Positions 7,950 to 64,000 of a stretch of 64,000 bases of DNA are shown piece after piece. Under the pieces are notes generated by a model. That model saw nothing but the letters and a program-made list of their open reading frames with translations, searched no databases and was not told where the DNA came from. Source of the DNA: Chiloscyllium plagiosum (Eukaryota); NCBI RefSeq assembly GCF_004010195.1, contig NC_057719.1:10907974-10971973 (forward strand). Reading direction: 5' to 3'. The translations under genes and the position numbers were made by a program. Every line of letters starts with the position of its first letter. Within the stretch, counting starts at the first letter, position 1.

Positions 7950-8042
7950 AAAAAATGCAAACTGCTGAAAATCCATAGCACAACTGACAGCATCAGTAGA
8001 GAGAAAAGATGAGTTTAGGATTTCAGCTGTGGGCCCTTCAAG
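7950..8042 (-). mobile_element. Penelope-derived short repeat, family B (degenerate single arm)
   Basis: ctgctgaaaatccatagcacaactgacagcatcagtagagagaaaagatgagttt..ttcagc..cccttca is similar to 28260-28362. Confidence 0.5.
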
Positions 8043-8429
8043 AGAGTTGCTTAAAGCAGTAACTTGGAATTTTCAACTGCAGTAATCTTCCAGTTATAAG
8101 GAGTTTCACAATGTTCTGTTTGACAAAGCTCCTGTTTTCATGTCTTCTCCTGAAAAATTGGCTCCTAAATGCAGGGAGATTGGACAAGGAGATAAATTCC
8201 AATTAAAATCATGGGTGAACAGAAAGACCATTACTAGTAAGGCTTGTGCTCCTTTGTGTCTCATAGTGCTGTGCTACACTGGCTGCTCCTGCATACAAGT
8301 TGCCCTTGATAATAGCAGCAGGTTGAATGGGCCCTCAGGCAGCACTGGGCATTTGCCCAACAACAAAACAAAAATTAATCCGTTCCAATAAAATTAGTTT
8401 AAGCAAAAAAAAATCTGACAGGAGAGAAA

Positions 8430-8473
8430 GGGGGCGAGGAATGGGGGCGAGGAATGGGGGCGAGGAATGGGGG
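8430..8473 (+). repeat. 13-bp tandem repeat (GGGGGCGAGGAAT)x3 + GGGGG
   Basis: Direct reading. Confidence 0.95.
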
Positions 8474-8829
8474 AATAACGGCTTTCTTGCTGCCCCTGCA
8501 GCTTATTCCCGCCATAGCAAGCACCCATTCCGTCCAAAAGTATTCTCACGATGAAGGATGGGGTCTCTATCAGGTGTGGTATGATCACAAAACCTGGCAT
8601 TGAGAACCTAAAGAGCACCATATTCAGCAGGGCAATAGAACCATTAACTCCTTACGTCCTGCGGAGGTTAAAACTGGTCTGACCAAGAAACAGGCCCCCA
8701 TGTTGCTAGTGTTGTTGAAAGTATATTTCCATTCGCACTGCTGTTTCTGAAAGGCTCACTGTGAATGGAGGTAATATCATTTGATGCTAGCGTGTGGGTG
8801 GAAGGGGGGAAACAGGCACATAATGTGTC

Positions 8830-11570
8830 CCACTGATGGACTACATGGAGAATTAAAGATATTAAAGCATGAGGATTGTAATGTTGCCAAAAAGAGCTGA
8901 GAGCCGGAGGATCGAGTAGATTTTAGAATTCAGTAGAGGATAAGAAATTGGTAAAGTGAGAGAATATGAGAGTACTAAGAGAGACATGAGAACAGATTAT
9001 AGACTATTCCATTGGTATTGCAACAGGAAGAGACAGCTGAAAGTAATCACAAGCCCCTCGGAGGCAGGGACAAGTGAATGGGGATTAATGGGAAAGTAGG
9101 ACATGGGAGAGATTTTAAACAAACACTTCATGGCAGAAGATACAAAAGACATTATGAAAATGCAGAATTAAGGTTCTAAGAAGAATGAGGAATGAAAGCT
9201 GATAAATCCCCATGGCCTGATAACCCACATCTCGGAGGACTAAAGGAGGTGCCCATGGAAATAGTGGAAACGTTGGTTGCACCTTACAAAATTCTGAAGA
9301 TTCTGGAACCATCCTGGCAGATTGGAGGTTAGAAAATAAAACATCTCTATTTAAAAAAAGGAGAGAGAGAGAAAACTGGAAATTATAGACTGGATTAGCT
9401 TAACATCAGCAGCAGGGAAATTGCTGATGACTTTTATTAAATAAAGGTGATAAGCCACAACTGACTGGGCTAGCACGAGAAATCAAGTCACAAAAGTGAA
9501 ATATTTTGAAATAAGTATACAAGATTCCCTAATTTACCTGATTTTCAGACTCAGGTAGAAAGAAATCTTGGACCAGATTTGTGTACAACTTATTCCAAAT
9601 AATTAGAGTCTAGCTACAGGTAAATAGTTACAAACCATCAGCATACAACAGTACAAATGAAAATTCTAATCTTCTTATAAATTCTCCCTTACACACCCAC
9701 ACAAATAGACAAATAGACAGGGAAGCTAAGTGACAGGAAGAGAAAATCTGGGAGGCAGATCAGTGACTTCTGTTCATAGGTTAGCAAAGTGATCCTTATG
9801 ATTCTTATTCTAATCAGCACATTGCTTTCTGGTCATCTTTCTCCCAATGTTCTTACTGGTTTGCAAAAGACACATAAAGTACTTCTGACTTATCTGTTAA
9901 ATGTCACAGCTTGCAACAACTGCTGAAGGGCAGATAAACTGGTTTTCCTCAGACTTGAAGTGGGTTTTGGCTGCAGAGAACAGACGGACAGCTCCTGATC
10001 TGGTGGAGATCAAAAATCACTTCTCTTTGAATCTTGTTCCCAGCCCCAAGCTGTTCAGCTGTCAGTGAATCAATCACATGGTTGTGAGCAGGCAAAAAGC
10101 TTTTGTCATCAGTAAATGGTTGCTAATCTATGAACCAATCAACCTCTTGATGCCGCCCAACAGCATCAGTACGCAACCCCTCAGTTCCAGTTCAGCTATT
10201 ATAAATCTTCATATACTGCTTGTTTAAACAGCTGCGCAAACAGCATGCTTTCCACAAGTGTCAGGTCACTTGTTTTTTGAACCATACAGCAAATCTTTCA
10301 AACATTGGTTTTAAATGAATTCTACCTCGTTTTGCCTTATAATTTTGAAAAGCATAAAAATGATACCAGGACACTTAGAAAGTACTAACAGGATTACACA
10401 AAGGCAACATGGATTTATGAAACAGAAACTGAATTTGACATACCTACTGGAATTGATTGAGGACATTTCTCACAGAATAGATGGGGGAGAACCAGTGGAT
10501 GTCGTATATTTGGATTTACAGAAAATGTTTGACAAAGCGCCATGTTAAGAGATTAGTATGCAAAATCAATGGGATTAATAGTAATTAACTGGCATGGAGC
10601 CATATTTGGATAGCAGTCAGGATGCAGAAAATAGGAATAAATGGAAGGTGTTAGTGAGTGGGATACCACAGGAATCAGTCCTTGATATTCAGAATACATA
10701 TTAACAACTTGAATGACAGAATCAAACATAATATTTCCAAATTTTCTTATGACATAAAACTAGGTGGGATTGTCAGTAGTGAGGTGGATGTAAAGAGCTG
10801 TTTAGACAAGTTCAAAAAGTGGCAGATGCAGCATAAGAAAAATAAGTGTGAAGTTGTCTGCTCAGTAAAATAAACAGAATGGCAAAGCAACAGTTATATG
10901 ATGATAGGTTGGGAAATATTGATGTACAAAGGGTGTCCTTACACACTAGCCCCTAAAAGCAAGTATGTACGTGCAGGAAGCAGCTAGGAAGGCAAAAGAT
11001 ATATGAGCCTTCATTGCAAGACAGTTTGAGTTGTAGGAGCAAGAAAGTCTTACTGCAGCTGTATAGGGCCTTGCTAAGACTACATCAAGAGTACTGTGTG
11101 TACATTTGATTTTCTTACCTAAGAAGCTAGTCATAGAGGTAGCTGTAATGGTTCACCAGTCTGATTCCTGGGATGAAATGTTTGTCATATAGAGAGGTTG
11201 GGTTGATTGGGTCTGTGCTCACTGACTCTGAGAAAAATAAGCGATCCAATTGAAACATTTAATAGTTGAAAATTCTTCAGGGACTTAGGTAAGCTGTTGT
11301 GAAAAAATATTTTCATTCCTAGCTGTGGAGTTTTAATTTAGGGGTTGGCGGAGGGTTTGGTTGCTGAGGTGTGGAAAAATTTCTGTTTTTTCAATCTCTG
11401 GACCTTGCTATCGCAGAGGTCTGTGGATGGTCAGCCCTTGAGTGCGTTGAAGGGAGAAGCTGGTCAATTTTTGGGCATGAAGGGAATTATGGGAGATTGT
11501 TGGGTGGAACTGAAATAGAAGATCAGCCAACTGCTAAACAGTGGAGCCATCCTGAGAGAGCAAAGGGCTC
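8830..11570 (+). mobile_element. Decayed CR1 LINE ORF2 (RT region), interrupted by an insertion at ~9445-10350
   Basis: GNYRLDSLTS-like at ~9380; QRQHGFMK..LTYLLELIEDI..GEPVDVVYLDLQKMFDK (ORF 10315-10548); INNLND..ISKFSYDIKLGG (ORF 10658-10873). Confidence 0.85.
9445..10350. mobile_element. ~0.9-kb unclassified insertion within CR1, possibly a solo LTR
   Basis: CR1 coding sequence stops near attaaa..gtgata and resumes at atgataccaggacacttagaa; the intervening DNA is unrelated to CR1. Confidence 0.45.
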
Positions 11571-11871
11571 CCCCAGCCTCCCTCACTAGCCTCCATGTAT
11601 ATATGTGGCACGGTGTGTGTGAATTATACCAAGCCATTAAGGTCAGGAAATCTAGATATTCCAGGGAACTCAGATGGGGCTGTGGAACAGCAATGGAGAT
11701 AGTTGTCCCTAGTCTGGAGTAGGGAAATTATGTCAATTATTATTCTGAACACTGTGTAGATGGTGCATTGAGTATTCGGACTCACCTCTGAAGATTTCCT
11801 ACATAACCTGCCAAAGTTGTTCACACTCAGTGACAGCGTGGTGAGAAAGGTATCCTCATGGACATGATCAT

Positions 11872-11962
11872 TGAAGAGTGTGGTGCTGGAAAAGCACAGC
11901 CAGCCAAGCAACATCCGAGGAGCAGGAGATTCGATGTTTCGGGCATAAGCCCTTCATCAGAT
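11872..11962 (-). mobile_element. Penelope-derived repeat, family A single arm with hammerhead-like motif
   Basis: Minus strand reads CTGATGA-AGGGCTTATGCCC-GAAACATC. Confidence 0.75.
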
Positions 11963-14817: not shown

Positions 14818-15046
14818 GGAGAAAGTATGGATGTAGATGCAGGAGATCAAGGGAAAGGTAGTTGAGAATGTATTAGGTCGGTGGATGTGGGGGTAAAGGT
14901 GACAGCTCCACCCCCTTCCATTATCTCTCAGGAGCCCCCAGCCCACACACCTCATTCCTGATGAAGGGCTTATGCCCAAAACGTCGACTCTCCTGCTCCT
15001 CGGATGCTGCCTGATCTGCTGTGTTTTCCCAGCAACACACTCTCAA
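14818..15046 (+). mobile_element. 5'-truncated Penelope-like insertion (family A) with short inverted 5' piece and hammerhead-like motif
   Basis: 15-bp TSD ctcatatttaagtat (14803-14817 / 15047-15061); CTGATGAAGGGCTTATGCCCAAAACGTC at ~14958, with GAAA mutated to AAAA. Confidence 0.8.
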
Positions 15047-15489
15047 CTCATATTTAAGTATATCAACAAGTTGAACATCCTTATATCCAAATAAGTTAGG
15101 GTGCCAGTTAGCTAGAAGAACAGTTTGTGGTTCACAAGAACACCAATGGTGCAAATTCGATGTATGTTCCTGCCTCCTTGTCCTGCCCCAACTCGTGGAA
15201 ACCCTCACTAACAGAAAATGGGTCAGGATGAAACAAAGCAGATAATGAGGTAAAGACCTGTCTTTCGACAAAGCATACACCACTTTAAACATGAATGTAC
15301 ACAGTGAAATGGTCCCAGCCACCTGAATACAAGCTGAACAAAGGTTTCACGTGAAAGTATTCAAGAAAAGATGAGCAGAAAGCGAGAACTGAAGGAACCT
15401 ATCCACTGCTGAATAAGGCCAATCCATCAATAATATTTGGAAGAAAACGAAATTCAAGATTCAATTTCCTAAGTATTAGGTGTACCATC

Positions 15490-16933: not shown

Positions 16934-17149
16934 GGCAAAAATGAGGACTGCAGATGCTGGAGGTTAGAGTCAAGATTAAGGTGGTGCTGGAAAAGCACAG
17001 CTGGTCAGGCAGCATCCGAGGAGCAGGAAAATCGATGTTTCGGGCAGGAATCTGATGAAGGGCTCCTGCCCGAAACGTTGATTTTTCGGCTCCTCGGATA
17101 CTGCCTGACCTGCTGTGCTTTTCCAGCACCACCTTAATCTTGACTCTAA
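16934..17149. mobile_element. Palindromic Penelope-derived insertion (family A) with hammerhead core
   Basis: Inverted arms ~16963-17049 / 17065-17149; TSD ctaatcaaatcagaa (16919-16933 / 17146-17160); CTGATGAAGGGCTCCTGCCCGAAACGTT at 17052. Confidence 0.85.
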
Positions 17150-17995
17150 TCAAATCAGAAACAGAGTCAAAGGTGCGCATATGTGCAATGACCTATTTAA
17201 CACACCACTGAGTGCATTTATGAGTGTCAGATGTTTGGCTCCTGTTCTGCAATACTGCAACACTACTAGATGAACAAACTTAGAGAACCAGCATTTGATA
17301 GACTCATTCTCAAACCCGTTATTACCAGAAATAACCATGTATTCAGGAGGACATTTTCCCGAGCTAGCACAGCTTGTTCTAACCCACCATCTACCCCCGC
17401 TATCCCTTAAGAACACTCCTACACACAAGTTCCCACTGCAGTACACATGGTTTCAAGGCTTTTTTTTAAAACATTGAGTACTTTTTTGTTGTTATGACTG
17501 AAATGAAGACAGAAGTGAGACACAACTAGAGGTAGGAAAATAAAATCAGCCATCATCCAGATTGCTATCAAGTGACCCTTGACACGCTTTAGCCACCTTC
17601 CTCTCCTCCTTTAAGGCACTCTTTAAAACCCAGCGCTTTGACAGTGTTTTTGATCACCCAATCCTAGTAGGTCCTTTGGCTTGCCATCCATTTTTTATGA
17701 CAACTGTAAAATTCCTCGAGGCTATTTCCTACACCAATAACTTGTTGTTTAATGAGTCCCACTTCAGTTGAGCAGAACGTGCAAGTTAAACACTCGGCAG
17801 ACTCTCTCTGGAAGAGCTGATCCTGCCCAATTCCGATTGCATGGACTCTCACATTAAGGCAGGTCCATTCGGAAACTTCCCTGGGGTCCAGTAAAACAGC
17901 CCCTTACGGAAAGAAAGACATAAAGAGGAAAAATTAAAAAGAAAACAAAAAATATTGGCAGAGCCAAGTGGGGACACTGTGGCAACATGTTACCA

Positions 17996-18261
17996 CGGCA
18001 CGGTGACTCAGTGGTTAGCACTGCTGCCTCACAGCACCAGGGTCCCAGGTTTGATTTCTGCCTTGGGCAACTGTCTGTGTGGAGTTTGCACATTCTCCCT
18101 GTGTCTGCATGAGTTTCCTCTGGGCCATGCTAAATTGCCCGTAGTGTGAGGTGCATTAGTCAGAGGGAAATGGGTCTGGGTGGGTTACTTTTCAAAGGGT
18201 CGGTGTGGACTTGTTGGGTCAAAGGGCCTGTATCCACACTGTAGGGAATCTAATCTAATCT
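17996..18261 (+). mobile_element. HE1-like V-SINE
   Basis: tRNA-like head ggcacggtgactcagtggttagcactgctgcctcacag, V-domain tgtgtggagtttgcacattctccc, (AATCT)n tail. Confidence 0.85.
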
Positions 18262-23547: not shown

Positions 23548-23779
23548 TAAAAACAATGACTGCAGATGCTGGAAACCAGATTCTGGATTAGAGTGGTGCT
23601 GGAAAAGCACAGAAGTTCAGGCGGCATCCAAGGAGCAGGAGAATCGACATTTCGAGCAAAAGCCTTTCATCAGGAATACAGCTGTCTTCCTGATGAAAGG
23701 CTTTTGCCTGAAACGTCGATTTTCCTGCTCTTTGGATGCTGTCTGAACTGCTGTGCTTTTCCAGCACCACTCTAATCCA
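23548..23779. mobile_element. Palindromic Penelope-derived insertion (family A variant) with hammerhead motifs on both strands
   Basis: 17-bp TSD cacaaatatgaacatgg (23531-23547 / 23778-23794); + strand CTGATGA-AAGGCTTTTGCCT-GAAACGTC at 23690-23717; degenerate - strand copy at ~23646-23673. Confidence 0.88.
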
Positions 23780-23974: not shown

Positions 23975-24385
23975 CATTTGCAGGATGTGGACATCACAAG
24001 CAAGGTAGCATTTATTTTCCATCCCTAATTTCCCAGAAGACAGTTAAGTGTCAATCTAATTGCTTTAGGCCTGGAGTCACCAGACCAGAAAAGGATGGCA
24101 GGTTTCCTTCCCTAAAGGACATCAGTGAACCAGATGCATTTTCCCGGACAATCAGCAATGGCTTCACGGTCATCAGTGGCCTCACAATTCGAGACTTTTA
24201 CTGCATTCAACTTCCACAAATCCAGGTCCCCAGGACATTAATTGGGTCTCTCCTCAGATGCTGCCTGAATTGCTGTGCTCTTCCAGCACCACTAATCCAG
24301 AATCTGGTTTCCAGCATCTGCAGTCATTGTTTTTACCTCTCTGGATTAACAGCCTAGTGATATTCCCACGAGACTATCGCCTTCC
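23975..24385 (-). mobile_element. tRNA-derived SINE (LINE-family-2 partner) containing a family A arm at ~24248-24337
   Basis: Matches 30850-31145; inserted ctcctcagatgctgcctg..cagcatctgcagtcattgtttttacc. Confidence 0.75.
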
Positions 24386-24419: not shown

Positions 24420-26155
24420 ATCTTCAACCATCTTCAGCTACTTCAACAATGGCCTTCTCTCCATCATAAAGTAAATAGCGGGGATGTTTGCTGATTATTG
24501 AACATTGTTCAGCATCATTCATGGCTCCTCAGATACTAAAGCAGTCTATTTGCAAATGCAACAAGATCTGGACAATATCCCAGCTTGGGCTGACAAGTGG
24601 CAAGGAACATTCACACCACACAAATGCAAGGCACTGACTATCTCTAATAAGAGACAAACTAACCACTGTCCTTTGACATTCAATGATGTGGCCATCACTA
24701 AATCACTCACTAACGACATCCTACATGATACTAATGACCAGAAATTCAACTGGACTCACCATATAAGTAGGGTGGCTACAAGAACTGGTCAGAGGCTAGA
24801 AATTCTGTGGTCACCTCCAAACTGCCCAAAGCCTGTTTATTATTTACAAGGCACAAGTTATGTGTATGATGGATTAGGAGAAAGTGAGGACTGCAGATGC
24901 TGGAGATCAGAGCTGAAAATGTGTTGCTGGAAAAGCGCAGCATCCAAGAAGCAGGAGAATCGACCTTTCTGGCATCAGCCCTTCTTCAGGAAGCCCTTCT
25001 TCGGGCTCATGCCCGAAATGTCGATTCTCCTGCTCCTTGGATGCTGCCTGATCTGCTGCGCTTTTCCAGCAACACAATTTCAGCCTACGATGGATTAGGC
25101 CCTACTTACCTGGATGAGTGCACTCCAATAACACTCATGAAGCTTGACACCATCCAGGACAAACAGCCCACTTTATTGGCGGCACATTCACAAGCATCCT
25201 TTTCCTCCACCACCAATGCTCAGTAGCAGCAGTGTGTACTATCTACAAAATGGACTGCAGAAACTCTCCCAAGATCCTTAGATAACTCCTTCCAAGTCCA
25301 TGACCACTTCCATCCATCAAGGGCAGCAGATACACAGGAACACCACCACCTTATGTTCCCCTCCAAGCCATTCACCAGCCTGACTTGGAAATATACCACT
25401 GTTCCTTTACTATCACTGGGTTAAAATCCTGGGTCTACCTACATGACATAGACTCCAGCAATTCAAGAAGGCAGCTCACCACCACATGCTCATGGGCAGA
25501 GATGGGCAATAAATGCTGGCCCAGCTAGCGACATCCATGCCTCAACAGAGAATTTCTTTTTTAAAAGCAGATCATGTTCTGCAATGAGTAACTCACCTCC
25601 TTTGAGTAACTCCTCAAAGTCTGTCCACCATCTACAAGGCACAAGTCAGGAGTGTGATGGAGTACTCTCCACTTGCCTGGGTGAGTGCGTCTCCAACAAC
25701 ACTCAAGAAGGTTCATACAATAGGAGAGGATAAAACAGTTGTTTGATTGGAACCCCATCTATTACCTTTAACATTCACGCCCTTCGTCATTGATGGGCAG
25801 GAGAAATAATATGTATCGTCCATTGGATGCACTTCAAAGTTCCTTCAATGTATCTTCAAAATCATTACAAGCGATCTCTACCACTAGAAGGACAAGGGCA
25901 GTAGATATATATAAACATCTCCATCTGCAAGTTCCCCTTCAAGTCACAGACCATCCTGGTTTGGAACTATATCACTGTTCTCTCATTGTTGCTTGGTTAA
26001 AATCCTGGAACTCTGTCCTAACAGCTTTGCGGGTGTCCTTACAACCCATAGACTGCGGTGGGTCAAAACAGCGGCTCCCCTTCACCTTCTCGAGGGCAAT
26101 TAAAGATCAGCTGTCAGTTCCAGCCTAGCCAGCAACCCCCACAACCCATGAATAA
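24420..26155 (+). mobile_element. Two tandem LINE family 2 3' fragments (24420-25555, 25590-26155)
   Basis: MQQDLDNIPAWADKWQGTFTPHKC (ORF 24505) and two copies of the family 3' tail. Confidence 0.8.
24879..25085. mobile_element. Palindromic family A Penelope-derived insertion inside LINE
   Basis: TSD tatgatggattagg (24865-24878) / tacgatggattagg (25086-25099); inverted arms gctgaaaatgtgttgctggaaaagcgcagca / tgctgcgcttttccagcaacacaatttcagc. Confidence 0.85.
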
Positions 26156-27767: not shown

Positions 27768-27862
27768 ATGATGAAGAGTCTTCTAGACTTGAAACGTTAG
27801 CTTGCTCTCTCTCCACGGATGCTGCCTGACCTACTGTGATTTCCAGCATTTTTTATTTTCAG
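27768..27862 (+). mobile_element. Penelope-derived family B arm with degenerate hammerhead
   Basis: atgatgaagagtcttctagacttgaaacgtt..ggatgctgcctgacc. Confidence 0.6.
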
Positions 27863-28259
27863 TACTTTAGAGGTAACAGAGTAGACCCCGCAATATTACC
27901 GATGAAAGTTGTTGTAACTACAGTGAAAATAGACCATGTTATACTTTCATCAATTGACTTTAATACCTGAGATGTTCATAACCTAAAAGAAATTCTAAAA
28001 ATGACATGAAGTGTCTGCTACGATCACCTTACCAGGCAAAACCATGTTCATGTAATCATCAGTAAATCAGGATCAGTCTAAGCTGAAATTAACATTGTTA
28101 TAAAGGGAACTGAAACACTGATCTTATCTCTTGGTTGATTCGTACCTTCCTACAAGATACTTTGAGGTGAAAGGTTGCCCTGAGACATATAAAGGGCGGA
28201 AACATAATGAAGTGACACAGGAATATGCAAGTGGACCTTTATGAACAGCAGCTTCAAAG

Positions 28260-28362
28260 ATGAGGAGTAAAAACAGAAATTGCTGGAGAAGCTCAGCAGA
28301 TCTGGCATTTTGTAGGGAAAAATCAGAGTTAACGTTTCGGGTCGAGTGGCCCTTCCTCAGAG
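28260..28362 (-). mobile_element. Penelope-derived family B arm with hammerhead core
   Basis: Minus strand reads CTGAGGA-AGGGCCACTCGACCC-GAAACGTT-aactctg. Confidence 0.75.
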
Positions 28363-29739
28363 ATGACGAGAATAGATTTACAAGCAAGAACTGGAAGGCA
28401 CTCTCTCTGCCAGGCTGTCTGTCTGTCTCTCTCTGTCTTATCAAGCTAAAACATCAGTGCATGGTAAAATAGCAACTTGAAGCATGAATTCATTACCAAG
28501 AACAAAGATATTTGTAAGTCTCACTGCTACTAAGGAAATAAGACAACAGCGAAACAGTTAGGACACTAGCTTCACTCTCAAAATTCAAGGACACTAAGAA
28601 CATTAAACTGGGATTGCCTTTACCTTCCTGCAAAGATGCTGAAACCCCATCTTTTCTTGTAAGCTTATGCCCTGTGTTTGTGTGTGTGTTTGATGTTGCA
28701 CTTTCATATTTTTCAGGGTGATCGGTGATAAAACCCCTCTTTCATTCACTCAAGAAAACCTTCTGATTGGCTTATTTATTCAGATCTAATTATTCAAATC
28801 TTTAATTGACATGTGACGTAAATGTGTGCTGAACAGAAATAAAAATATTTGTTACAACAGGCCGAGAAATGGCATAAAAAGAGAGAAATCACGAACCCGC
28901 CTTATCTGGAGGAACAAAGCCATGACATTATCATACAATTGTTCAAAACCACAATAACATGCTGTTCTCTATCACCACCTAAAAGAGCCACAGGAGTGTT
29001 ACAAAGAGGAAAATGGACACTGTGCCTGATAAGGACTTGGTGAAAGCAGTAGACTTTAAGGAATGTCTTAAAAATAGGACAAAGAGAAAGGAGGGAGAGA
29101 CGTTTAAAGAGACCTCCAGAGTTTAAGGCCAAGAAGAATGAAGGCAAAGATGCCAACATTCCAGCAATGAAAACTGGGCATGCATGAGAGAATAGACTCG
29201 AAAGTGCACAATTATCTCTGAATGCTGCAGAGCAGGAGGGCCAAGGAAGTTTTGAAACCAAGTAAGTGATTGCTCAGATTTGCAGGCCTACAAACCTGGT
29301 GTGGGAAGGTGACAGGAAGCTTTTTCCATTGACAGCAATGATGGGACAAATGACCTCTGTCTGTTTATAAAGTTTCTAGATTCTGTCATCTGGCCATCAC
29401 CTTTTCTATTGCTGAAGTCTCATTGCTCCTGGGCAGGTGATGGGGAGCCACCTTCCTGAAATCCTCCAGGAGAGGACGGGATTACTCCAGGGACGGACAA
29501 AGCTAGATTGCTCCTTTATACTGTCAGTGGAGCCCATTCCATTCAACAGTTACAATATACAAGCAGAAATTAAGATCATAGAATGAGACAGCAAAGACGA
29601 ATGCCAGTCAGTACGCTGTGCTTGTGCTAATTCCCTAATATCGAGGCACACTCACTGCTCTTTCCCTATCCTGTAACTTGTATGTTCCAGTTTACTCATG
29701 GTTGGTGTAAATCATTGGGGCAGCGTATACTTTTCACCT

Positions 29740-30000
29740 AAAAGCAAAATATTGCAGATGTTGGAAATCCAAAATAAAGACAGAAAGCACTGGCAAAATT
29801 CAGCAGGTCCGGTGATATAAGTAGAGAGAGAAGAACAGAGTTAATGTTTTGAATCCCATATGACTCTCTTTCAGAACTTGTTCTCAGTAAAGGCTTGTTG
29901 TTTCAAGTTGCTTTTTTACCTCTCGGAGAATACGATTCTGAAGAAATCTGTTTCTGTTCTCACTGATACTGCCAGACCTGCTGAGTTTCTCTGGGTTTTT
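29740..30000. mobile_element. Old palindromic family B insertion
   Basis: ttcagcaggtccgg..cagagttaatgtttt and inverted tgccagacctgctgagtttctc. Confidence 0.6.
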
Positions 30001-30849
30001 TTATATATAAGTAGGATTTTTACCTCTATGTTCTAGCAGGGTCCAAATTTCTCTTCATCACATGGCTCAATCTCTAAGTTTTAGAAGGTGGTGCAGTTTG
30101 ATAAATTGGGTGCCAAGTCATGCATTGAGACTTGAACCCAGTGCTCCAGGTTCAGAGGCAAGGACACTCATTACCACGCCACAAGACCTCTTTCATCTCC
30201 TGTGGCCCAGATAATCTTCCCTTCTGTTAACGATTATCTTTTAGAAAGTTAATGCTCCAACTGAGCCCGTTTCCACAATTCTTTCAGCCAATGCAGATTG
30301 CAGATCATAAGTCACTGAGTGAAAACTAAACCATGGCAAATAATATAGAATTTCCCATCCTTCTTTGACTATCTCTTCCCCTGACACTCAGGTCCTCAAT
30401 GAGAATTACAATCAGGGCTTTAAAGTCAGGGTCACGTTTCAGCTATCATCCACACAATGCAGTCAAGAAAGACAAAGGCTGAGTAATGAGACTCGCAGAC
30501 ATTCCAGGCACAGCACGCTCTTGTTGGCATGAAATGTAAACTCCTGTACACTTTAGTTTTTAAAAAGATAAACAAAAAGAAGAATTATAAAAATTAAATG
30601 CATGCTTTGTGATCATTGTAAATGCTGCGCTCATGTGGGAATGTGTCAAGAGCCTTCCACCAGCTGCTCAGCACAGCAGGCAAACCAGAGAGATCAGGAA
30701 CAAGGGGAAGGCAGTAATTAAAGCTGTCAGCTTCTCTTATCTGTATTCATCAGAAGCAGAGGGTGTATGGCTCCTGGAAACTGCCCATCCATCAGCACAA
30801 ATGTGACAATCTGTTTATCTCATGGCCACAGCCTGTCTCTCCATATTAT

Positions 30850-31145: not shown

Positions 31146-31167
31146 TTCCCACATAGAAAATTTTTAT

Positions 31168-31935
31168 AGAGTCAGAGAGTCATAGAGATGTACAGTACGG
31201 AAACAGACCCTTCGGTCCAACACATCCATGCCAACCAGATGTCCCAACCCAACCTAGTCCCACCTGCCAGCATCCAGCCCATATCCCTCCAAACCCTTCC
31301 TATTCATATACCCATCCAGGTGCCTTTTAAATGTTGCAATTGTACCAGCCTCCACCATTTCCTCTGGCAGCTCAATCCATACACATACCACCCTCTGAGT
31401 GAAAAAGTTGCCTCTTAGGTCTCTTTTATATCTTTCCCCTTTTACCCTAAACCTATGTCCTCTAATTCTGGACTTCCCCACCCCAGGGAAAAGACTTTGT
31501 CTATTTATCCTATCCATGACCCTCATGATTTTATAAACCTCTATAAGGTCATCCCTCAGCCTCCGATGCTTCAGGGAAAATAGCCCCAGCCTGTTCAGCC
31601 TCTCCCTGTAGCTCAAATCCTCCAACCCTGGCAACATCCTTGTAAATCTTTTCTGAACCCTTTCGGACCTTACCATTAAGTGTATAAGTCCTGCTAAGAT
31701 TTGCTTTCCCAAAATGCAGCACCTCACATTTATCTAAATTAAACTCCATCTGCTACTTCTCAGCCCACTGACCCATCTGATCAAGATCCCATTGTAATCT
31801 GAGGTAACCTTCTTCGCTGTCCACAATACCTCCAATTTTGGTGTCATCAGCAAACTTACTAACTATACCTCTTATGCTCACACCCAAATCATTTATATAA
31901 ATGATGAAAAGTAGTGGACCCAGTACCGATCCTTT
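31168..31935 (-). mobile_element. HER1/CR1 LINE 3' part with internal deletion
   Basis: GSVLGPLLFIIYINDL..SKFADDTKIGG; MEFNLDKCEVLHFG; ERVQKRFTRMLPG..GNFFTQRVV. Confidence 0.92.
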
Positions 31936-33785: not shown

Positions 33786-33805
33786 ATTTAACATGTTTCC
33801 CAGAT

Positions 33806-33916: not shown

Positions 33917-33919
33917 ATT

Positions 33920-38364: not shown

Positions 38365-38490
38365 CACAGAAAAACTACGGGTGTGAAAATCTGAAACAAA
38401 AACAGAAATTGTTGGAGAAACTCTGCAGGTCTGGCAGCATTTGTGGAGAGAAAGCAGAGTCAAGATTTTGGGTCCAGTGACCCTTCACTA
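38365..38490 (-). mobile_element. Family B arm
   Basis: aacagaaattgttggagaaactctgcaggtctggcagcatttgtggagagaaagcagagt. Confidence 0.7.
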
Positions 38491-38719: not shown

Positions 38720-38910
38720 ATAAAAACAGAAAGTGCTGGAAATACTGGAAGGTCTGGCAGCATCTGAGGAATGAGAAAACAAAGTTAACATTTCACATTG
38801 AATATGAAGTGTCATATTCGATTTGGAACATTAACTCCGCATCTCTTTCTCCATGGAGGCTGTCAGACCTGCTGAGTATTTCCGGCATCCACAATATTTT
38901 ATTTTTGTTC
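38720..38910. mobile_element. Palindromic family B insertion (old)
   Basis: tgctggaaatactggaaggtctggcagc..gctgtcagacctgctgagtatttccggca. Confidence 0.65.
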
Positions 38911-45145: not shown

Positions 45146-46964
45146 CCTGTGTATAAAAAGGTTTCATGAAGAGAGGAGCACAGTAAATGGTGAGCAAGTG
45201 TAGCTGAGTTTGAGATTGAAATCAGTGAAATCAGTCATTCAGTCCAGCAGATGAGAGAAGACAGCAGAGAAGACATATTGCCTGATAGTAGGGAGATGGA
45301 CCAAGGTATGATTTAAAGGTAAGGTTTCCACCACCATATGATGATGAGAGGCTGGTCAGTGGTAGACAGCAGCGTCTGGCAAAGAAGCCTTGTTTCAGGG
45401 AATTAATTAATTAATTCAACTGTATTGTGCATCTCTATCTTCACTCTGATCGTGTGAATGTGCAGGTTTCTTGATAAACTGCTGGGAGTTCATACAACTG
45501 AATGGTTTCAGTGAGCAGTAAGGAGTTAACCACATTGCCGTGGACTGGAGTCACATGTAGTCCAGTGAGAAAATCCACTAAATGAAATTGGTGAATTCCA
45601 AACTGACAGAGCTTTGTAGAAGTTCATTTTTATTGACACCGGATTTTTTTTTAAATTTCCATATGTTTAGGAAAACCTGAGTTCAGATTCTCAAAACTGA
45701 TGTGGTAGCATTTGATCTCAACCCATGAAGTGGTTCAAGTGATGATCTATTAGCAGCAAGGACCTGGCCTGAAATAAGTTTGGGGATCGCTCACTTTCAT
45801 TTCTGTCCCTGTCCTAAAGTGCAAAGCTGACCCTTAATTAACCAGTATGTCGTCTCCTCAATCCGAGGGGCGACAGGATAATTCTGGAATGGGTCTCCTC
45901 TGAGCTTTAACTTGACAGAGTAGCCTCTCATTGAGCTATAGCTAGCCTGGCAATACATGAGCCTAAAACAGAAAGTGTTCCCTTCCAAGGACCTTAGTGA
46001 CAGAGAAAAATGAGCAATAGTTAAAAAGGGAATGTGTTATATCATATGCATTTCCATTGCCCAGTTAAAATACACACTGTGCACGATCCAGGTTCCAGCT
46101 CCAACATAGACATCACTCATCATCTTTCATCTACGTTATGTCACCTTTGTTGCACTTTTCAAACTATACACACAATGGCAGTGCCAGCTGTGTATTGTAT
46201 GGGAGAACCTCGAACCTGATATGGGATTACAGCTAAAGTCGTAATTCAACACTGGGACTCAGAATAAGTCACAGACGCACAAGAGACAGGTTTTGAGTAC
46301 TGAAAATACATTATTTAAGGTTGTGATTAGGTTACTGTGATAAATTTACTGAATGGTGTCAGGTACACCTGAGCAAAGTATTGTTCCATGACTGTTATAT
46401 ACAATGATGCATCTTACTTCCAAATCTTTGACGTATTGAAGTGGCAGTGTTGACGTTAAGTTGGTTCACATGCTGTTTTGTGAGACCATGTCAGACATGA
46501 TGGAGTAATTTTAATCTGATGTGTTGGATGGAAATGCCAGATAATTAGATCGAGGTTGGTGTTACACTATGCCCAAAATTATAGTCCCATTTATTTCAAT
46601 GACAGTTGAAATGGAGGATTACTCTGCATTGCTCCCAACCTTGTTAGTTTCCTGACAGGCGGGTTCACTAAAAAATATCCCCCATGCTTTATTTTGCTGC
46701 ATAAGTATATAACTGGTGAGTCCCTTTGAGGCCACAGGCTCGATTGCAACAGTCACAGTTCATTACACTTGACAGTTTTATGAATAGCAAATTGTAAGTA
46801 GATCTGATCCTAGGCCATAACACAAGAGGTGCAATGTTCAAAGTGAAGCAGGAAGGACAACAGATGTCACATGCAGACTAGGATGATCATCGCTAATCTC
46901 TTGAGGCCTATGACATGAAGGGGGGATTGTTGGTCAGGAAGTGAATTGAGTACGAGATCAAGCA

Positions 46965-47290
46965 CAGTAACTCAGTGGTTAGCACGGCTGCCTCATAATG
47001 CAAGGTACCCAGGTTCAAGTCTAGCCTCAGGCAATTGGCTGTGTGAAGTTTGATTTGGAGATGCTGGTGTTGGGCTGGGGTGTACAAAGTTAAAAATCAC
47101 ACAACACCAGGTTATAGTCCAACAGGTTTAATTGGAAGCACACTAGCTTTCGGAGCACAACTCCTTCATCAGGTGATTGTCCTGTGTGATTTTTAACGGT
47201 GTGAAGTTTGCATACTCTCCCTGCATCTGATCAAGAGATGTGCAAGTTAGGTGGATTGGCTATGCTAAATTGTCCATCGTATTCATAGTG
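46965..47290 (+). mobile_element. HE1-like SINE interrupted by a family C element
   Basis: Head ctcagtggttagcacggctgcctca; V-domain split at gtgtgaagtttg. Confidence 0.75.
47053..47198 (-). mobile_element. Penelope-derived family C insertion with hammerhead motif
   Basis: 12-bp TSD gtgtgaagtttg (47041-47052 / 47199-47210); minus strand CAC-CTGATGA-AGGAGTTGTGCTCC-GAAAGCTA-GTG; 15-bp inverted repeat gttaaaaatcacaca / tgtgtgatttttaac. Confidence 0.8.
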
Positions 47291-48023
47291 TGGTAGACAC
47301 TAGGACACTGAGTAAATTTAAGACTTTTAATGAGTAATGGGTTGAAGGGTTATGGACAGTGGTGTTGAAGTTGAGATGAGTGCAGCCATGATCGTATAAA
47401 ATGGAGGAACAGGATTGAGGGGCTGAATGGCTTACTCCTGCTCCTAGTTCTTATGTTTAACCTTCTATTAATTAGCAATCAGTCTATCTCATCTGTAAAT
47501 TTACTCAGTATCCTGGTAAATACTGCACTCTGGAGCAGGGAATTCCATATGTGCTGCCAGATCTGCTGTGTTTCTCCAGCATTTCTTCATTTTTATTTCA
47601 AATTTCCAGCATTGGCACTAATTTGCCTTTATTCCCTGCCCAATATTGTGTTGTTTGGAGAGCTGACCACTGCTAAAGGGATCAAAGATTCTGTGAAGAC
47701 TGCCTTTCTGAGTATTACAATGATCACTACCATAGGGAAATAAGGCCATAGCTTGTAACACATGGAGATACTTTTGAGTCTGAGTGAAGAACTAGCATGA
47801 AGGAGAATAGGAAGAGATTGAGAGGTTCAATTTTCCTAAGCAGTGACTATACCTACAGCTGCACCCGCTGTTGAAAAATCTGCCAATTACAAATAGGCCT
47901 GACTAACTAGCAGCAGGCCTTAAACCAATGAGTACAACCTCCCCAAAATCTCTGTCAGCAAAGAAATGCACAACATCAGGAAGGACCAGGGAGTGCATGG
48001 TGTCAGGTTTGTTATTTATATAA

Positions 48024-49344: not shown

Positions 49345-49740
49345 AAGGCAAAATACTGAGGATGCTGGAAATCTGAAATAAACATAGAATGCTGGAGGAA
49401 CTCAACAGATCTGGAAGCATCAGTGCAGAGAGAAACAGTGTTAACATTTCAAGTCCAGTATCACTCTTCAGAACTGAGTGCGAGTTAAAAGGCTGGGCTA
49501 CTATGTAAATTCAAGATGTGTATGCAGTTTAGTACGCATATTCTTTTAAATAAATGGGAACTTGTTCTATAAATTGTTCCACTTCTTGTTTTTGGGTTAC
49601 ATTTCCTGCCTTAACATTGGCAGAGGGGCCAAAATAAATCCTTTGGAAGACATGTCACACTGGATTTCTCTCTCCTCAGATACAGCCAGATCTGCTGGGT
49701 TTCTCCAGCATTCTCTACGTTTGTTTCACACTTCAGACTA
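49345..49740. mobile_element. Family B arms (49345-49475 and inverted 49660-49740)
   Basis: gctggaggaactcaacagatctggaagc / gccagatctgctgggtttctccagc. Confidence 0.6.
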
Positions 49741-51049
49741 TCTGATACCCCACACTACCCTAGCTGAATGTTGCTGTGGGGTGGGAAGTGGGGAGAGGAG
49801 ATGGTAATTAAGATTCTTCAGGGTTTCACTGCATCACTAACATAGCAGAGAGGATCCTATCAAAATTTCAAACACGGTGTGAGAAAAGATTAATATCTTC
49901 CATTGGAAAAGTCAAAGAAAACTTCTGTATCACTGGCCATGCTGTATGCACATAGCGAGTGGGGGGAACCTTCCAGCTTCCAGTCAGAGTTAAGAGAAAC
50001 ACACTATCTTATGAAGACAAAGCCTGTTAAATGAATCTGCAGCTCTGAACAACTGATAGGGTGCAGTAGGGCTGGGAAGTACAGGGATGAACAGTTTAGG
50101 GGTTGATCTCTGTGCGTTGTATTTTCACTACTCCCTGGTCAAATTTGACAGTTTCAATCAGAGTGTAAGGATATGGTAACTGATCCACCAACAGCATCTG
50201 GCACATAAAGATGTGGGAAAGGCCAAACAAAGGCTAGATTTTTTTTTGTCGTTGTTGCTGATCCACAACAGACTGCCTGGTATTTTCTTGTGGTTCTGAA
50301 AGGTCTCTAGTATAGTTCGCAAGGAGTTTCAGTTTGCACTTTGAAAGTGGAGTGCTGTCTCACCTGGAGCAATATAGTAATTAAACTTACAAGAGATGGC
50401 GACGGGCTGCTCTGCGGATTACACAGCCAGCAGTTGGAAGTGTCAATCACGGAGATTGGGAACTGAACTGAAGATTTGAAGTGGTTTGTGGACTGAGGGA
50501 GGATTTAAGGTGATGAACTGGTTCAAGACTTGTGTGCGATCAATGCAAATGCGAAGTCCTAAGTTTAGCCATGTGTGAAGAACTCACAAATGGGAGTTTT
50601 AGAGTGGGGAACAAATTGTGAGCAAATTGGTTTTAATTTCTGTGACATGAATGCATACATACATGCAAGTGAAATCATCCTGTTAACGGTATAAACATGG
50701 AACTCTTCTGCCCATATATTAACTAGCAACTATTCAATCACCCACCCTGTCTTTCTTGCCTGACAATAACTCGCAATCTTTGTATGCTTCCATTTTAAAA
50801 TTCTGATCGAGTTGAAATCCGTCCGTGCCCCTGTAATCTGCTCCATCCCACTGCTCTTCTCATCACCGAGTTCCTCAAACTCTGATAGTTACCTCTCCAT
50901 TCAGATCGTTACAATATTGGTAGCTATGCCCCACCTGCCTATGTTTCTGTACTAAGCACTGGAATCTGCCTCTTCGCCTTTCCAGCACTGCCTAAAACCT
51001 ATTTCTGTGACCAAGATTTCAGTCACCCCTACAAATGATTCACTCAAAT

Positions 51050-51275
51050 AAAAGCAAAATACAATGGATACTGGAAATCTGAACCAAACACAGAGAATAC
51101 TGGAGAAACTCAGCAGGTCTGGCAGCATCGGTGAAGAAACAAAATTAACATTTCGCTTCTGATACATCTCTTCACCAGAACACTAAGTTCCGCAGAAAAA
51201 TCATACCAGACTCGATGCGTTAACTCTGTTTCTATTTTCACAAATGCAACGTTTCTCCAGCATTCTTTGTACTTG
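51050..51275. mobile_element. Palindromic family B insertion
   Basis: ctggagaaactcagcaggtctggcagcatc..gttaactctgtttc..gtttctccagcattct. Confidence 0.65.
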
Positions 51276-52059
51276 ATTCCACCTAAATTTTTCTTCCACG
51301 TGCTATCATTTTTCTTCATGTGAAATGTTCCACTATGTTTTTCTGTGTCAAAGGTGTGATAGATAATCGCAAGATATATTTTTTTAAAAATCTTTTCACA
51401 TTGGGTTCATACTGGATTTGATTGTTTGCATCCCACTCTTAGGCCTCTGGGGAACACAGAAGAGCAATGTGACCATTACAGATAACCAAAGACTGAACTT
51501 ACAGAGTGCAATTTGGAAAAGCAAAGGAAGAGTACAGCCTTTGAACTTCCTCTGAAGTTTAGTGGGAGCCCTGAGGCCACATGGAAACGTTATGTGGCAC
51601 TCTTCACAGCTGCTCTAATAACAACAGTATCCAACAACGATATCTTGTGGTTAGTCATTCAGATGGTTCGAAAACAGAAGAGGCACAACAGCCAAGAGGG
51701 ATTTGTGATGTACCCAAGGCTGACAAACAGTGGGCACAAATTCCAAATACAGTCCCAGACAATTTTAAAATAAAAAACGAATGAAAATGAACTGATTTTT
51801 TTTTCTTTGAGTAACAGATCATCAGGCAGAAAGATGCTTTGAAGCGGAAGGAAAAAAAATGAATTCTCAAATGGCGCAAAAGAGTGAGTTTCAACAAAAT
51901 TGGAAGCAAAAATGTTTGTGATTAAAACCGAATGCAAGACCCAAGTTTATTGTAAATTTCAAAATACTGCAAGTGGATGAAATGCAGTGTTATTGGAAAT
52001 GATGTGGCTGCCTACAGACCCTTACTCCACCAGTAAATAAACACTGACCCTTCAACATA

Positions 52060-52780
52060 GGTAACTCTCCTCGCTCATCTCGGAGCAAGTCAAAGGTCAG
52101 AAATTCTGTGCCAAGTAATTCACCTCTTGCATCTGCAAAGCCCATTTACCATCCACGTTGGGGGTAGGATGGAATACTTTCTCTTGTCCGGATGGATGCA
52201 ACTCCAAGAAGAAACTCAATGCCATCCAGGGCAAAGCAGCCCACTTGATTGGCACGACATTCAACATTCACTTCCTTGTGGGCGGCACGGTGGCACAGTG
52301 GTTAGCACTGCTGCCTCACAGCGCCAGAGACCCGGGTTCAATTCCCGCCTCAGGCGACTGACTGTGTGGAGTTTGCTCGGAGCAAGTCAAAGGTCAGAAA
52401 TCTGTGCCAAGTAATTCACCTCTTGCATCTGCAAAGCCCATTTACCATCCACGTTGGCGGTAGGATGGAATACTTTCTCTTGTCCGGATGGATGCAACTC
52501 CAAGAAGAAGCTCAATGCCATCTAGGGCAAAGCAGCCCACTTGATTGGCACGACATTCAACATTCACTTCCTTCAACACCGATGCACAGTGGCAGCAAAG
52601 TATACCATCTACAAGATACACTGCTACAGTTCAGCCAGACCCCTTCCACAGCACCTTTGGAATCTCCAATCTCTACTATTTAGAAGGACAAAAGCAGCAA
52701 ATACACAGAAACATCACCACCTGCAAGTTCCCCTCAAGTCACATGATGCTGACTAGGCACGATTCTGTAACTCCTTCACA
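52060..52780 (+). mobile_element. LINE family 2 3' fragment carrying a 199-bp tandem duplication
   Basis: KKLNAIQGKAAHLIGT; catcaccacctgcaagttcccctc. Confidence 0.75.
52278..52375 (+). mobile_element. HE1-like SINE 5' head only (98 bp)
   Basis: A box tggcacagtgg, B box ggttcaattcc; ends within the V-domain. Confidence 0.85.
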
Positions 52781-53039: not shown

Positions 53040-53190
53040 ACTTCTGAAATTAAAACCAAATACTGGAAATACTCAGTAGGTCTGGCGGGTGAGAGATAAA
53101 GAGTTAATCTTTCAGGATGGTGGCACATGAGTAGAGCTGATGAGTATTCTCAGCATTTTCTCTCCAGTCCTGTATTCTGATTTCTGAATA
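53040..53190. mobile_element. Old palindromic family B insertion
   Basis: ctggaaatactcagtaggtctggc..tgagtattctcagcattttc..ctgatttc. Confidence 0.55.
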
Positions 53191-54693: not shown

Positions 54694-55139
54694 CCAAACG
54701 ATGGTTAAAGTTAGAAAAGTTCAGCCTAACAGAAGAAAAGAACTTGCCTTTATATAGCACCCTTCACAACACTGGGATGCCCAAACCTTTTTCTCGTCAA
54801 ATCAATTATGGTCACTGTTCTGATGTAGCCACTGTTGTGATATAGGAAATTCAGAAAGCCAATGTGTGCACAGTAAGCTCCCACAAATGGCAATGGAGAT
54901 AAACAGCCGCCTACTTTAGGTGCTTCCTGAAGGATAATATATTTTGCCAGAAAACTGAGAGAAATCTTATGCTCTTCTCTGAAAAGTGCAAAGGAAAACT
55001 GGAAGGGATATCAGACTCCTGTGACGTTGGACTCTCATAACACAGGAAGGACTTTTCTGAATACATCATGTGGCTCCTCTAACTCTCCCACCATGAAAAT
55101 ACACTGTGCTTAACATAATTTTATGATATACAACACATA
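54694..55139 (+). repeat. Left copy of a local inverted duplication (partner 57262-57670)
   Basis: Direct reverse-complement match. Confidence 0.93.
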
Positions 55140-57261: not shown

Positions 57262-57670
57262 TATGTGTTGTATATCATAAAATTATGTTAAGCACAGTGT
57301 ATTTTCATGGAGAGAGAGTTAGAGGAGCCACATGATGTATTCAGAAAAATCCTTCCTGTGTTATGAGAGTCCATCGTCACAGGAGTCTGATATCCCTTCC
57401 AGTTTTTCTTTGCACTTTTCAGAGAAGAGCATAAGATTTCTCTCAGTTTTCTGGCAAAAAATATCATCCTTCAGGAAGCACCTAAAGTAGACGGCTGTTT
57501 ATCTCCATTGCCATTTGTTGGAGCTTACTGTGCACACATTGGCTACATCAGAACATAATTGATTTGACAAGAAAAAAGCTTGGGCATCCCAATGTTGTGA
57601 AGGGTGCTATATAAAGGCAAGTTATTTTCTTCTGTTAGGCTGAACTTTTCTAACTTTAACCATCGTTTGG
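57262..57670 (-). repeat. Right (inverted) copy of 54694-55139
   Basis: Reverse-complement match with 7-bp and 30-bp deletions. Confidence 0.93.
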
Positions 57671-58852: not shown

Positions 58853-58886
<34 letters not shown>

Positions 58887-60960: not shown

Positions 60961-61008
60961 CTTCCTATTGCCATAAATGTAAAATCTTGCACTTATTCAG
61001 CACATTAT

Positions 61009-61954: not shown

Positions 61955-62297
61955 GGGTGGTACGGTGGCTCAGTGGTTAGCACTGCTACCTCACAGTGCC
62001 AGGGACCCGGGTTCAATTCCAGCCTCGAGTGACTGCCTGTGTGGCATTTGCACGTGCTCCCTGTGTCTGCATGGGTTTCCTCTGGGTGCTCCGGTTTCCT
62101 CCCACAGTCTAAAGATGTGTAAGTTAGGTGGATTGGCCATGTTAAATTACCCACAGTGTTCAGAGATGTTTAGGTGAAGTGCATTAGCCATGGGGAATGC
62201 AGAGTTAAAGGGATAGAGTAGGGGGATGGGTCTGGGTGGGATGCTCTTCGGTGGGTTGGTGTGGACTTGTTGGGTCGAATGGTCTGTGGGGATTCTA
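61955..62297 (+). mobile_element. HE1-like V-SINE, near full length
   Basis: A box tggctcagtgg, B box ggttcaattcc, V-domain and tail. Confidence 0.88.
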
Positions 62298-62356
62298 TAT
62301 AAAAAATATTGAACCATGCAGATGTGCTATTCATAAATAAAACCAGACTGTAAATT

Positions 62357-62589
62357 TGCCTATGCAAAGTGGAATCATGTGAATATTTCAGTCAAGATGA
62401 GAGTGGTGCTGGAAAAGCACAGCAGGTCAGGCAGCATCCGAGGAGCAGGAAAATCCATGTTTCTGATGAAGGGCTCCTGCCCGAAACGTCGACTTTCCTG
62501 CTCTTCTGATGTTGCCTGACCTGCTGTGCTTTTCCAGCACCACTCTCATCTTGACTGAAATATTCACATGATTCCACTTTGCATAGGCA
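62357..62589. mobile_element. Palindromic family A insertion whose inverted repeat extends into flanking DNA
   Basis: tgcctatgcaaagtggaatcatgtgaatatttcagtcaagatgagagtggtgctgg has its exact reverse complement ending at 62589; CTGATGAAGGGCTCCTGCCCGAAACGTC at 62463-62490. Confidence 0.9.
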
Positions 62590-62810
62590 GATTGGAAAAG
62601 TTACAGCTTTAAATGGTTGATCATAGCCCGTACCATACAACCTGTCACACTTGGGCACTATTTGAAGTGGACAACTTGACAGAGGTGGAAGATGTAGGAG
62701 GTGTGGTCTAGTCCAACATTTTTGGTGCAACGTACAGTCCAGCATTATTTGCAGCAACTTTTACATCAATGCACAGCAACAGGGCAACAACAATACAACT
62801 TGCCATCATT

Positions 62811-62943
62811 CAGGAATCCTGAAGAAGGGCTTATGCCCGAAACGTCGATTCTCCTGCTCCTCAGATGCTGCCTGGCCTGCTGTGTTTTTCCGGCATCATA
62901 TTTTTCAACTCTGGTCTCCAACATCTGCAGTCCTCACTTTCTC
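62811..62943 (+). mobile_element. Family A single-arm insertion
   Basis: TSD caacttgccatcatt (62796-62810) / caacttgccattatt (62944-62958); intact 3' end ..catctgcagtcctcactttctcc. Confidence 0.85.
62814..62851 (+). ncRNA. Minimal type I hammerhead ribozyme motif (Penelope-associated)
   Basis: GAATC [stem I] CTGAAGA A GGGC-TTAT-GCCC [stem II] GAA-ACGT-C / GATTC [stem I']; predicted cleavage after C62846. Confidence 0.75.
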
Positions 62944-64000
62944 CAACTTGCCATTATTGTAAGGATTAACAACAACCCATCATACATGCAATGCAATGTT
63001 GGTGCTTTCTTTCACTGGACACTTTATCTAAAGAGGACCTGGGTTGCACTGGTCATGTAGGGTTACAGAATTATGTAGATAAAGGCCATTCAGGCCACTG
63101 TATGTTCATTAACATTTTGAAAATGATATCCCTTGCGTCTCACCCCTTGTTCATAAACCCCTGGACGTTTCCCTCACCATCTATTTATCCATCTGGAAGT
63201 GATTACTGAACCAGCTTGCTTTGTCTCTTAGACAATGCATAATAATTAACTTTAATCATCATGATACCTCTTTATTGTTCTTTGGCATTAATAGTTACTC
63301 TGTTGCTTTAACTTCAGCATAGCCATCATTCTGTAATAATTTCATGTCTGCTTTGCTCTCTCTGCAAATAAAGAGTTACTTCATGAATATTCATTTACTT
63401 TTTAGTGATAAATTCCGTACAGACAGGACAGTCACCATCATGCTCTTTGCTGTCTTTTCAAAGAGTCAACAATCCAATGAGCAGGTATAACTCTCATCCA
63501 TTGTGGAGTGCTGGCTGATGTGAAGTGACTGTATGAAAATCCTGATTTATTGAAAGTGATCCTTCTGGCCCCTAAAGGAGATTGTGTTCCCTTGCCTTGA
63601 AAACATAATGTTCCTTGGGCAGCACTTAAAATCCACTTATCAATCAGTGAAAAACATCAGGAGAGGCAGGCATCCCCATTTTTTAATAACCTCAAATCCA
63701 TAGCAAATGCAAAAGGTTTACTATTAATGATAACAAGGTGTTTGAGCTGATGATCTCAGGAGATTGATTACAGTAGGAAGAATACAAGTTGCTATGTGAT
63801 CCAAAATTCTCATAGAAATCAAATTGCGCTTCACCTGGAGTGTTTACATAACAGAGAGAATCACAAACTCTAATGAAAGGCTGAAAACACAAGCTTGAGA
63901 AACCAGGGTGACAGAATAACCTGCCGCTTGATCCTGGAGGGAACAGTGGTCGCTACCCTGCACTTTCAAACTGTTGAGCTTTCTCCTCTCATCACAAGTA

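Follow-up and report, generated by a model that had tools for sequence, protein, structure and literature searches.

The 64,000-nucleotide window analysed here, from the shark Chiloscyllium plagiosum (contig NC_057719.1, positions 10,907,974 to 10,971,973 of the forward strand), contains many short repeats that share a hammerhead ribozyme scaffold. Judged by their sequence, these repeats are stubs of the pseudo-long terminal repeats (pLTRs) of three endonuclease-containing (EN+) Penelope-like elements (PLEs), reaching from the hammerhead to the 'tail', and not a separate ribozyme-derived class. What the initial annotation described is, on its own, ordinary: truncated Penelope-like copies with a known hammerhead. 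The value lies in scale and regularity, with about 0.9 million stubs and tens of thousands of identical young copies, which together form a natural read-out of the transposition cycle.

Where do these repeats come from? A Penelope origin had been proposed, and extending the flanks to a partner open reading frame (ORF) confirms it: all three families, A, B and C, continue upstream into coding sequence for reverse transcriptase (RT) and the GIY-YIG endonuclease, and are therefore the pLTR ends of EN+ Penelope-like elements. Long copies of family A elsewhere in the genome include, upstream of the repeat, RT followed by a CX4CxxC linker and GIY-YIG domain, the last with a Pfam E of 4e-4, below the curated cut-off; for the RT pieces nothing matched in Pfam RVT_1 or the PDB. 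One family A locus, L221, is a complete decayed unit in which an inverted truncated copy is followed by a pLTR, a 3.5 kb unit and a further pLTR, with a target-site duplication (TSD); its frame has an ATG about 157 nt after the hammerhead core. In the set of retrieved loci, neither B nor C showed such a partial tandem of pLTR, ORF and pLTR. Family C joins a 394-amino-acid open frame with YIDD, CX4CxxC and GIY-YIG, and the nearest protein-atlas clusters are eukaryotic and carry GIY-YIG and RVT_1. In family B a decayed GIY-YIG frame, 41% identical to that of family A, lies about 500 nt upstream. The Cys linker between RT and endonuclease is of the Neptune/Nematis type (CX2-5CxxC) and is present in A and C. 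A further feature of the family A ORF is a low-complexity region preceding RT, which in one copy (L184:724-1500) is expanded to a 21-nt coding tandem repeat.

Copies were identified with nhmmer (E<=1e-3), using one profile per family built from genome copies, in the case of C from long copies. The reversed window yielded 0 profile matches, and reversed controls for the family profiles yielded 0, 0 and 3. To represent the genome, 80 stretches of 10 kb were taken at fixed positions on large contigs only, amounting to 767,037 non-N bases; small scaffolds lay outside this density sample, and 3.56 Gb was used as the assembly size for scaling. The sample holds 200 insertions (105 A, 54 B and 41 C, with the caveat that the A/B label of truncated arms can be swapped), or one per 3.8 kb, which extrapolates to about 0.93 million insertions genome-wide (bootstrap 0.78-1.08 million). 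The density of about one copy per 3 kb, put forward on the assumption that the window is representative, is thus borne out in this unbiased sample. The accompanying idea of a very abundant ribozyme-derived class survives as to its very high copy number, but not as to a distinct class. Exact 49-50-mers of three young subfamilies found 18,067, 14,920 and 8,831 matches in the genome, against 0 for reversed controls. Intact hammerhead motifs number 47 in the sample, an estimated 2 x 10^5 genome-wide.

The ends of the copies are highly regular. Positions are counted from the first C of the hammerhead core. In all families the 3' ends fall into two classes, near +80-100 and near +118-122. The 5' starts pile up at -5 to +5: 124 of 255 arms begin within 10 nt of the core, at 5.9 per nt compared with 0.37 per nt just upstream. 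Upstream reach is 110 nt or less in 223 arms and exceeds 110 nt in the other 32. The wall is equally visible in 90 young arms, chosen only by exact match downstream of +17 and judged against natural copies of the same subfamily: the start lies at -10 to 0 in 44 (mode -4), at +1 to +10 in 18 and later in 7, with another 4 at -49 to -11 and 17 at -50 or further. The bases upstream of near-core starts are unrelated host DNA or the partner arm. The predicted cut site is spanned by 218 of the 255 arms, and 5' ends do not peak there (21 fall in 10 nt, compared with 25 in about 15 nt), so that uncut RNA was the usual template. A profile-mismatch artefact was considered as the cause of the pile-up, as the young A subfamilies have a 3' untranslated region (UTR) unlike that of the profile; this upstream sequence occurs in 0 of 75 sampled near-core arms, and the artefact was rejected because the pile-up persists with subfamily-matched references.

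Head-to-head pairs make up 55 of the 200 insertions and single arms the remaining 145. A long arm is combined with a short one in 49 of the 55 pairs, against 27.5 expected (p=9e-10), and the two differ by about 30 nt. Neighbours of the same family are head-to-head in 55 of 62 cases and head-to-tail in 6, and junctions vary from copy to copy. TSDs were scored for the 189 insertions with full flanks (11 of 200 were dropped because of N or an edge); a score of at least 9 was reached by 56 of them, compared with 0.2% of shuffled flank pairs. They measure 9-18 bp with a peak at 14-15 bp, chiefly in A, and were found in 6 of 54 old family B copies.

What, then, is the state of the ribozyme? The family majorities are minimal type I hammerheads with the core CUGANGA plus GAAA, an extra A before stem II, G10.1-C11.1 in stem II, an NUH triplet, and a four-base palindrome (15.1-16.1) in place of stem III. 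Family A has the stem II GGGC/GCCC (4 pairs), the palindrome ACGT and the triplet GUC; family B has GGGTC/GACCC (5 pairs), ACGT and GUU; family C has GGAGC/GCTCC (5 pairs), AGCT and CUA. The scaffold that the initial annotation saw as common to the three families is accordingly present in all of them, in a minimal dimer-type layout. Stem II does vary between families and stay paired, but the description of GGGNC/GACCC as near-paired does not hold, as the GGGTC/GACCC of B pairs fully. Nor is stem III palindromic wherever the motif is retained: core, stem II and palindrome all pass in 5 of the 14 window arms that span the whole motif, to which the arm at 17052 may be added as apparently intact, and the arm at 11872 reads ACAT. 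The AGGC/GCCT stem at 23690, offered as covariation, has a sister arm with an A-C mismatch. Among 97 sampled A arms the 8-19 pair is G-T in 15, A-C in 7 and A-T in 1, and the stem at 23690 is most likely a chance transition pair. The motif is intact in 33 of 74 sampled motif-spanning arms of A, in 0 of 33 of B and in 14 of 39 of C.

Selection on a dimer-forming ribozyme, as had been suggested, is borne out between active master lineages, but not on inserted copies. In family B a true compensatory pair is seen, a G-C to A-T swap: of 40 arms, 16 have GC and 14 have AT (pooled p=1e-5), which supports selection on the fold in the active master lineages. Recurrent non-CpG variants of family A lie at N7, in loop II, in stem II and downstream, and avoid the 9 non-CpG core positions. 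No excess of compensatory doubles was detected in A (p=0.15) or C (p=0.28). Within copies, the stem III palindrome decays neutrally at the CpG background rate: among 103 A arms its CpG is kept in 61, compared with 68 and 66 for neighbouring CpGs, and among 46 B arms in 9, compared with 11. In neither B (p=0.10) nor C (p=0.17) is the core significantly better conserved than the sequence downstream of it. In A, core identity is 0.968 versus 0.900 downstream (p=0.002); we do not read this as selection on copies, because the arms were selected for alignment through the core and because the downstream columns hold subfamily differences. The hammerhead is likely constrained in master elements, where it probably acts as a weak dimer with help from protein, and a passenger in the stubs. 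Four RNA runs compared with one old copy gave no pile-up of molecule ends, a result too thin to bear on starts or cleavage (0 reads for X20, about 2% of X19 covered, most reads less than 90% alike). A single contig of run X2 joins the element at about +323 back to -4 (L221:4857-5184), a 328-nt tandem or circular junction at the 5' wall that may be genomic.

How could such stubs be made? We consider it likely that RT sets out from a point about 90 or 120 nt inside an uncut element RNA and copies as far as the 5' end of that RNA, where it runs off. The element protein would nick both target strands about 15 nt apart. RT would start inside the uncut RNA at an outer or an inner site and run off about 4 nt before the core, where the RNA 5' end is probably a transcription start. 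Each nick would serve as primer for a single cDNA, the two cDNAs being begun at different start sites and on independent templates; one product would leave a single arm, and two would leave a head-to-head pair with cDNA ends joined by microhomology. Long copies may arise when copying proceeds onto a tandem or circular template. For an anole element, both target strands are reported to be nicked and extended, with two internal RT starts, 111-118 nt after stem II, and uncut RNA as the main template (PMC11167929). An initiator-like hexamer is found at -4, TCATTC in A and TCAGTT in B.

Several observations weigh against the account given here. For family B no copy was found in which RT or the Cys linker can be read, the B copy being too decayed, and no intact full-length ORF turned up in a search confined to a few long-copy loci. 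The initiator-like motif is short and common, and C lacks one at that position. On a cap-derived G at the junction the count leans neither way: a G precedes 11 of the 24 A arms that start at -4/-5 (hand count), 4 of these owing to a TSD or partner arm. Stem I is weak, with 2 contiguous pairs in most A copies, 3 in C and 4 in B, and a hammerhead dimer fold is possible, yet is not the predicted minimum-energy structure in any of four copies. Non-nested arms could also result if palindrome centres were deleted asymmetrically once the copy had been inserted. Finally, the pair at 23548 has non-element bases shared at a perfect palindromic centre and that at 62391 has duplicated flank DNA, both of which fit DNA fold-back. 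The latter family A palindrome (62353-62593) lacks a TSD, and its inversion goes on past the element at either side for about 35 nt of flanking DNA, which suggests a DNA-level fold-back event.

These last cases lead to a serious rival, which we regard as possible though not probable: the stubs have the same origin, but a single cDNA folds into a hairpin near the hammerhead, primes its own copying and halts before the tail. Self-priming has been proposed for rotifer elements (PMC3846280), and the perfect centre at 23548, with its non-element bases, is what it would produce. The arms of one pair also differ by 0.10, as opposed to 0.17 from other pairs, and have subfamily and private variants in common. 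The 49 long-plus-short pairs are themselves divided. In 20 the two starts are no more than 5 nt apart and in 10 the short arm is nested in the long, as fold-back would have it. In the other 19, however, the short arm extends further upstream than the long, so that each arm has sequence missing from its partner; simple fold-back cannot yield this, and these non-nested arms favour two primings. Single arms, moreover, have the same 5' pile-up, and among single A arms starting there 17 of 37 have a TSD at the junction; the anole protein, too, extends both strands (PMC11167929). An elaboration of the two-primer scheme, which we think unlikely, would have transcription begin at the first stem I bases, pairing of the stem III palindrome bring two uncut RNAs together, and a PLE protein acting as a dimer prime one RNA per nicked strand, always from one outer and one inner start. 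If it were true, the hammerhead would act mainly as a signal for RNA dimerisation, and its strong-stop products would account for nearly a million shark 'repeats'. The 5' pile-up might also mark a splice acceptor or RT stalling at the ribozyme and not a transcription start, which is doubtful. An AG follows a pyrimidine run at -10 in one A subfamily and at -4 in B, and in D. virilis an intron ends at helix I (PMC4209133); the Penelope of that species combines an internal promoter with an intron that precedes the hammerhead (PMC2377424), which makes an end set by splicing conceivable as well. Yet no common exon-like sequence precedes the starts, that AG is missing in the young A subfamilies, and a structural stall would presumably leave ends on the 3' side of the fold.

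Could the stubs instead move independently, as a ribozyme-dependent non-autonomous class resembling retrozymes or short interspersed elements (SINEs) and selected for cleavage? The 18,067, 14,920 and 8,831 exact matches of near-identical young copies, and the roughly 47 intact motifs in 767 kb, are what such a class would give. It is nevertheless largely refuted and very improbable, as neighbours are head-to-head (55 of 62) and not head-to-tail (6), junctions are unlike among copies, the palindrome decays as fast as background CpGs, arm lengths pass gradually into the ORF (32 of 255 arms with more than 110 nt upstream), and poly(A) single-cell reads that overlap the module derive from both strands, 99% of them continuing into unlike sequence. 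A still simpler notion, that the palindromic copies are miniature inverted-repeat transposable elements of a DNA transposon, draws on the 55 of 200 insertions with inverted arms and direct-repeat flanks, and is refuted. Instead of DNA-transposon terminal inverted repeats with fixed TSDs and no Penelope ORF, which the initial annotation named as the pattern that would speak against it, we find arms unequal by about 30 nt, variable TSDs of 9-18 bp, 145 of 200 insertions with single arms, and sequence continuous with RT and GIY-YIG frames.

Much of this has precedents. Inverted pLTRs, one-sided tails and TSDs (PMC3846280, PMC8557442), dispersed minimal PLE hammerheads (PMC4209133) and a hammerhead dimer hypothesis (PMC6765202) are already published. 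The shark elements resemble EN+ insertion units in the pLTR-ORF-pLTR order with inverted copy and TSD (L221), in the 30-40 bp tail on one arm and in heavy 5' truncation (PMC3846280, PMC8557442), as well as in the Neptune/Nematis-type linker of A and C (PMC8557442). They differ in that rotifer examples have TSDs of 8-10 bp, where the shark stubs peak at 14-15 bp, that 223 of 255 arms here reach 110 nt or less upstream of the hammerhead, and that the one-tail rule is here quantified (49 of 55). The minimal hammerheads of Cervera and de la Pena (2014, PMC4209133) share the type I core, the loopless palindromic four-base stem III, the extra base before stem II, G10.1-C11.1 and a short helix I. They too are mostly dispersed single motifs tied to truncated PLEs, some in opposite-strand pairs 100-700 bp apart. 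Their stem II has 7-8 bp, compared with 4-5 bp in the shark families, and they number about 4,000 in coelacanth and 9,000 in Xenopus, against some 2 x 10^5 intact motifs here, counted with a different descriptor. Poseidon of Anolis carolinensis, PAc (Frangieh et al. 2024, PMC11167929), likewise has two RT starts, about 120 and 85-90 nt from the hammerhead, which define the tail, an uncut RNA template and no RNA ends at the cut site. Unlike PAc, the shark elements have a Neptune-type linker, and the family A ORF starts downstream of the tail, whereas that of PAc starts at stem II. The accessible part of the PAc paper does not address the 5' ends of short copies or the assignment of strands to starts; the sharp 5' wall and the one-long-one-short rule offer specific predictions for this existing in vitro system and for the role of the hammerhead. 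Non-LTR retrozymes (bioRxiv 10.64898/2026.07.22.740005) derive from PLE pLTRs, carry type I hammerheads and have been found in one cartilaginous fish, but are head-to-tail tandem units, whereas the shark stubs are single or head-to-head. The parts of PMC4209133 consulted, two of its three supplements among them, name no shark, and the whale shark paper lists Penelope as present and no more. Literature searches brought up no description of shark PLE stubs, although the remaining supplements of PMC4209133 and bioRxiv 10.64898/2026.07.22.740005 may name a shark.

Within the window, about 20 insertions had been reported, and all 21 listed sites match the family profiles, the weakest being 7950 (E 5e-4) and 53040 (E 2e-4). 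A 22nd site, a B-type stub at 49667-49730 (E 6e-10; plus strand, 49667-49734 as annotated), had escaped the initial annotation. The division into three families stands, with the qualification that C stands apart, whereas A and B match each other's profiles and form sister families. Family A head-to-head insertions with a long and a short arm lie at 16934-17151 (15-bp TSD; the right-arm motif, 17052, looks intact), at 23548-23777 (17-bp TSD, right-arm motif intact) and at 24879-25085 (14-bp TSD with one mismatch). In the one at 14818-15050 (15-bp TSD) the left arm is internally deleted, by eye, and its right counterpart begins 47 nt before the core; that at 62386-62561 has two short arms, no TSD and an intact right-arm motif. 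Single family A arms are found at 11859-11960 (minus strand; short 3' end, palindrome mutated to ACAT), at 33806-33915 (plus; start within stem II, possible 11-bp TSD) and at 62812-62944 (plus; intact motif, long 3' end, 15-bp TSD with one mismatch). The stub at 24247-24336 (plus) has no hammerhead and is A-type in sequence, though labelled B by the profiles by a small margin.

Old head-to-head pairs of family B occupy 29739-30008, 38720-38908 and 51046-51279; the B stub at 53043-53175 is probably another such pair, decayed, with a possible 13-bp TSD. Single B arms lie at 27769-27872 (plus; decayed), 28259-28367 (minus; core and palindrome intact, 4 of 5 stem II pairs), 38365-38487 (minus; long 3' end) and 49345-49490 (minus; core kept, stems decayed). 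The B copy at 33383-33790 (plus) extends 287 nt upstream of the core into the element 3' UTR, that at 7951-8080 (minus; E 5e-4) is an old stub with a decayed core, and that at 47546-47631 (plus) is a stub without hammerhead. The only family C insertion is a single arm at 47052-47181 (minus) with an intact motif, a long 3' end and an 8-bp direct repeat, inside a tRNA-like SINE.

As a caution for genomes of this kind, dead stubs dominate both hammerhead counts and hairpin or microRNA (miRNA) predictions. Rfam reported no hammerhead family on the window and merely 5 sub-threshold hairpin matches, over palindromes; the head-to-head pairs at 23628-23734 and 62422-62525 gave sub-threshold matches to miRNA precursor models and are a likely source of false miRNA calls. 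An inverted duplication of about 400 nt in apparently non-repeat DNA (54694-55139 and 57262-57670, 2.1 kb apart, 95-97% complementary) shows no PLE tail and no long ORF. Other repeats of the window appear shark-like. A 31-bp minisatellite occupies positions 2225-5066 (about 93 copies, 87% matches). The window also holds many copies of what we take to be a tRNA-like SINE (17997-18124, 46962-47052, 52284-52411, 61959-62086), and many 3' fragments, presumably of CR1/L2-like long interspersed elements (31163-31934 and similar).

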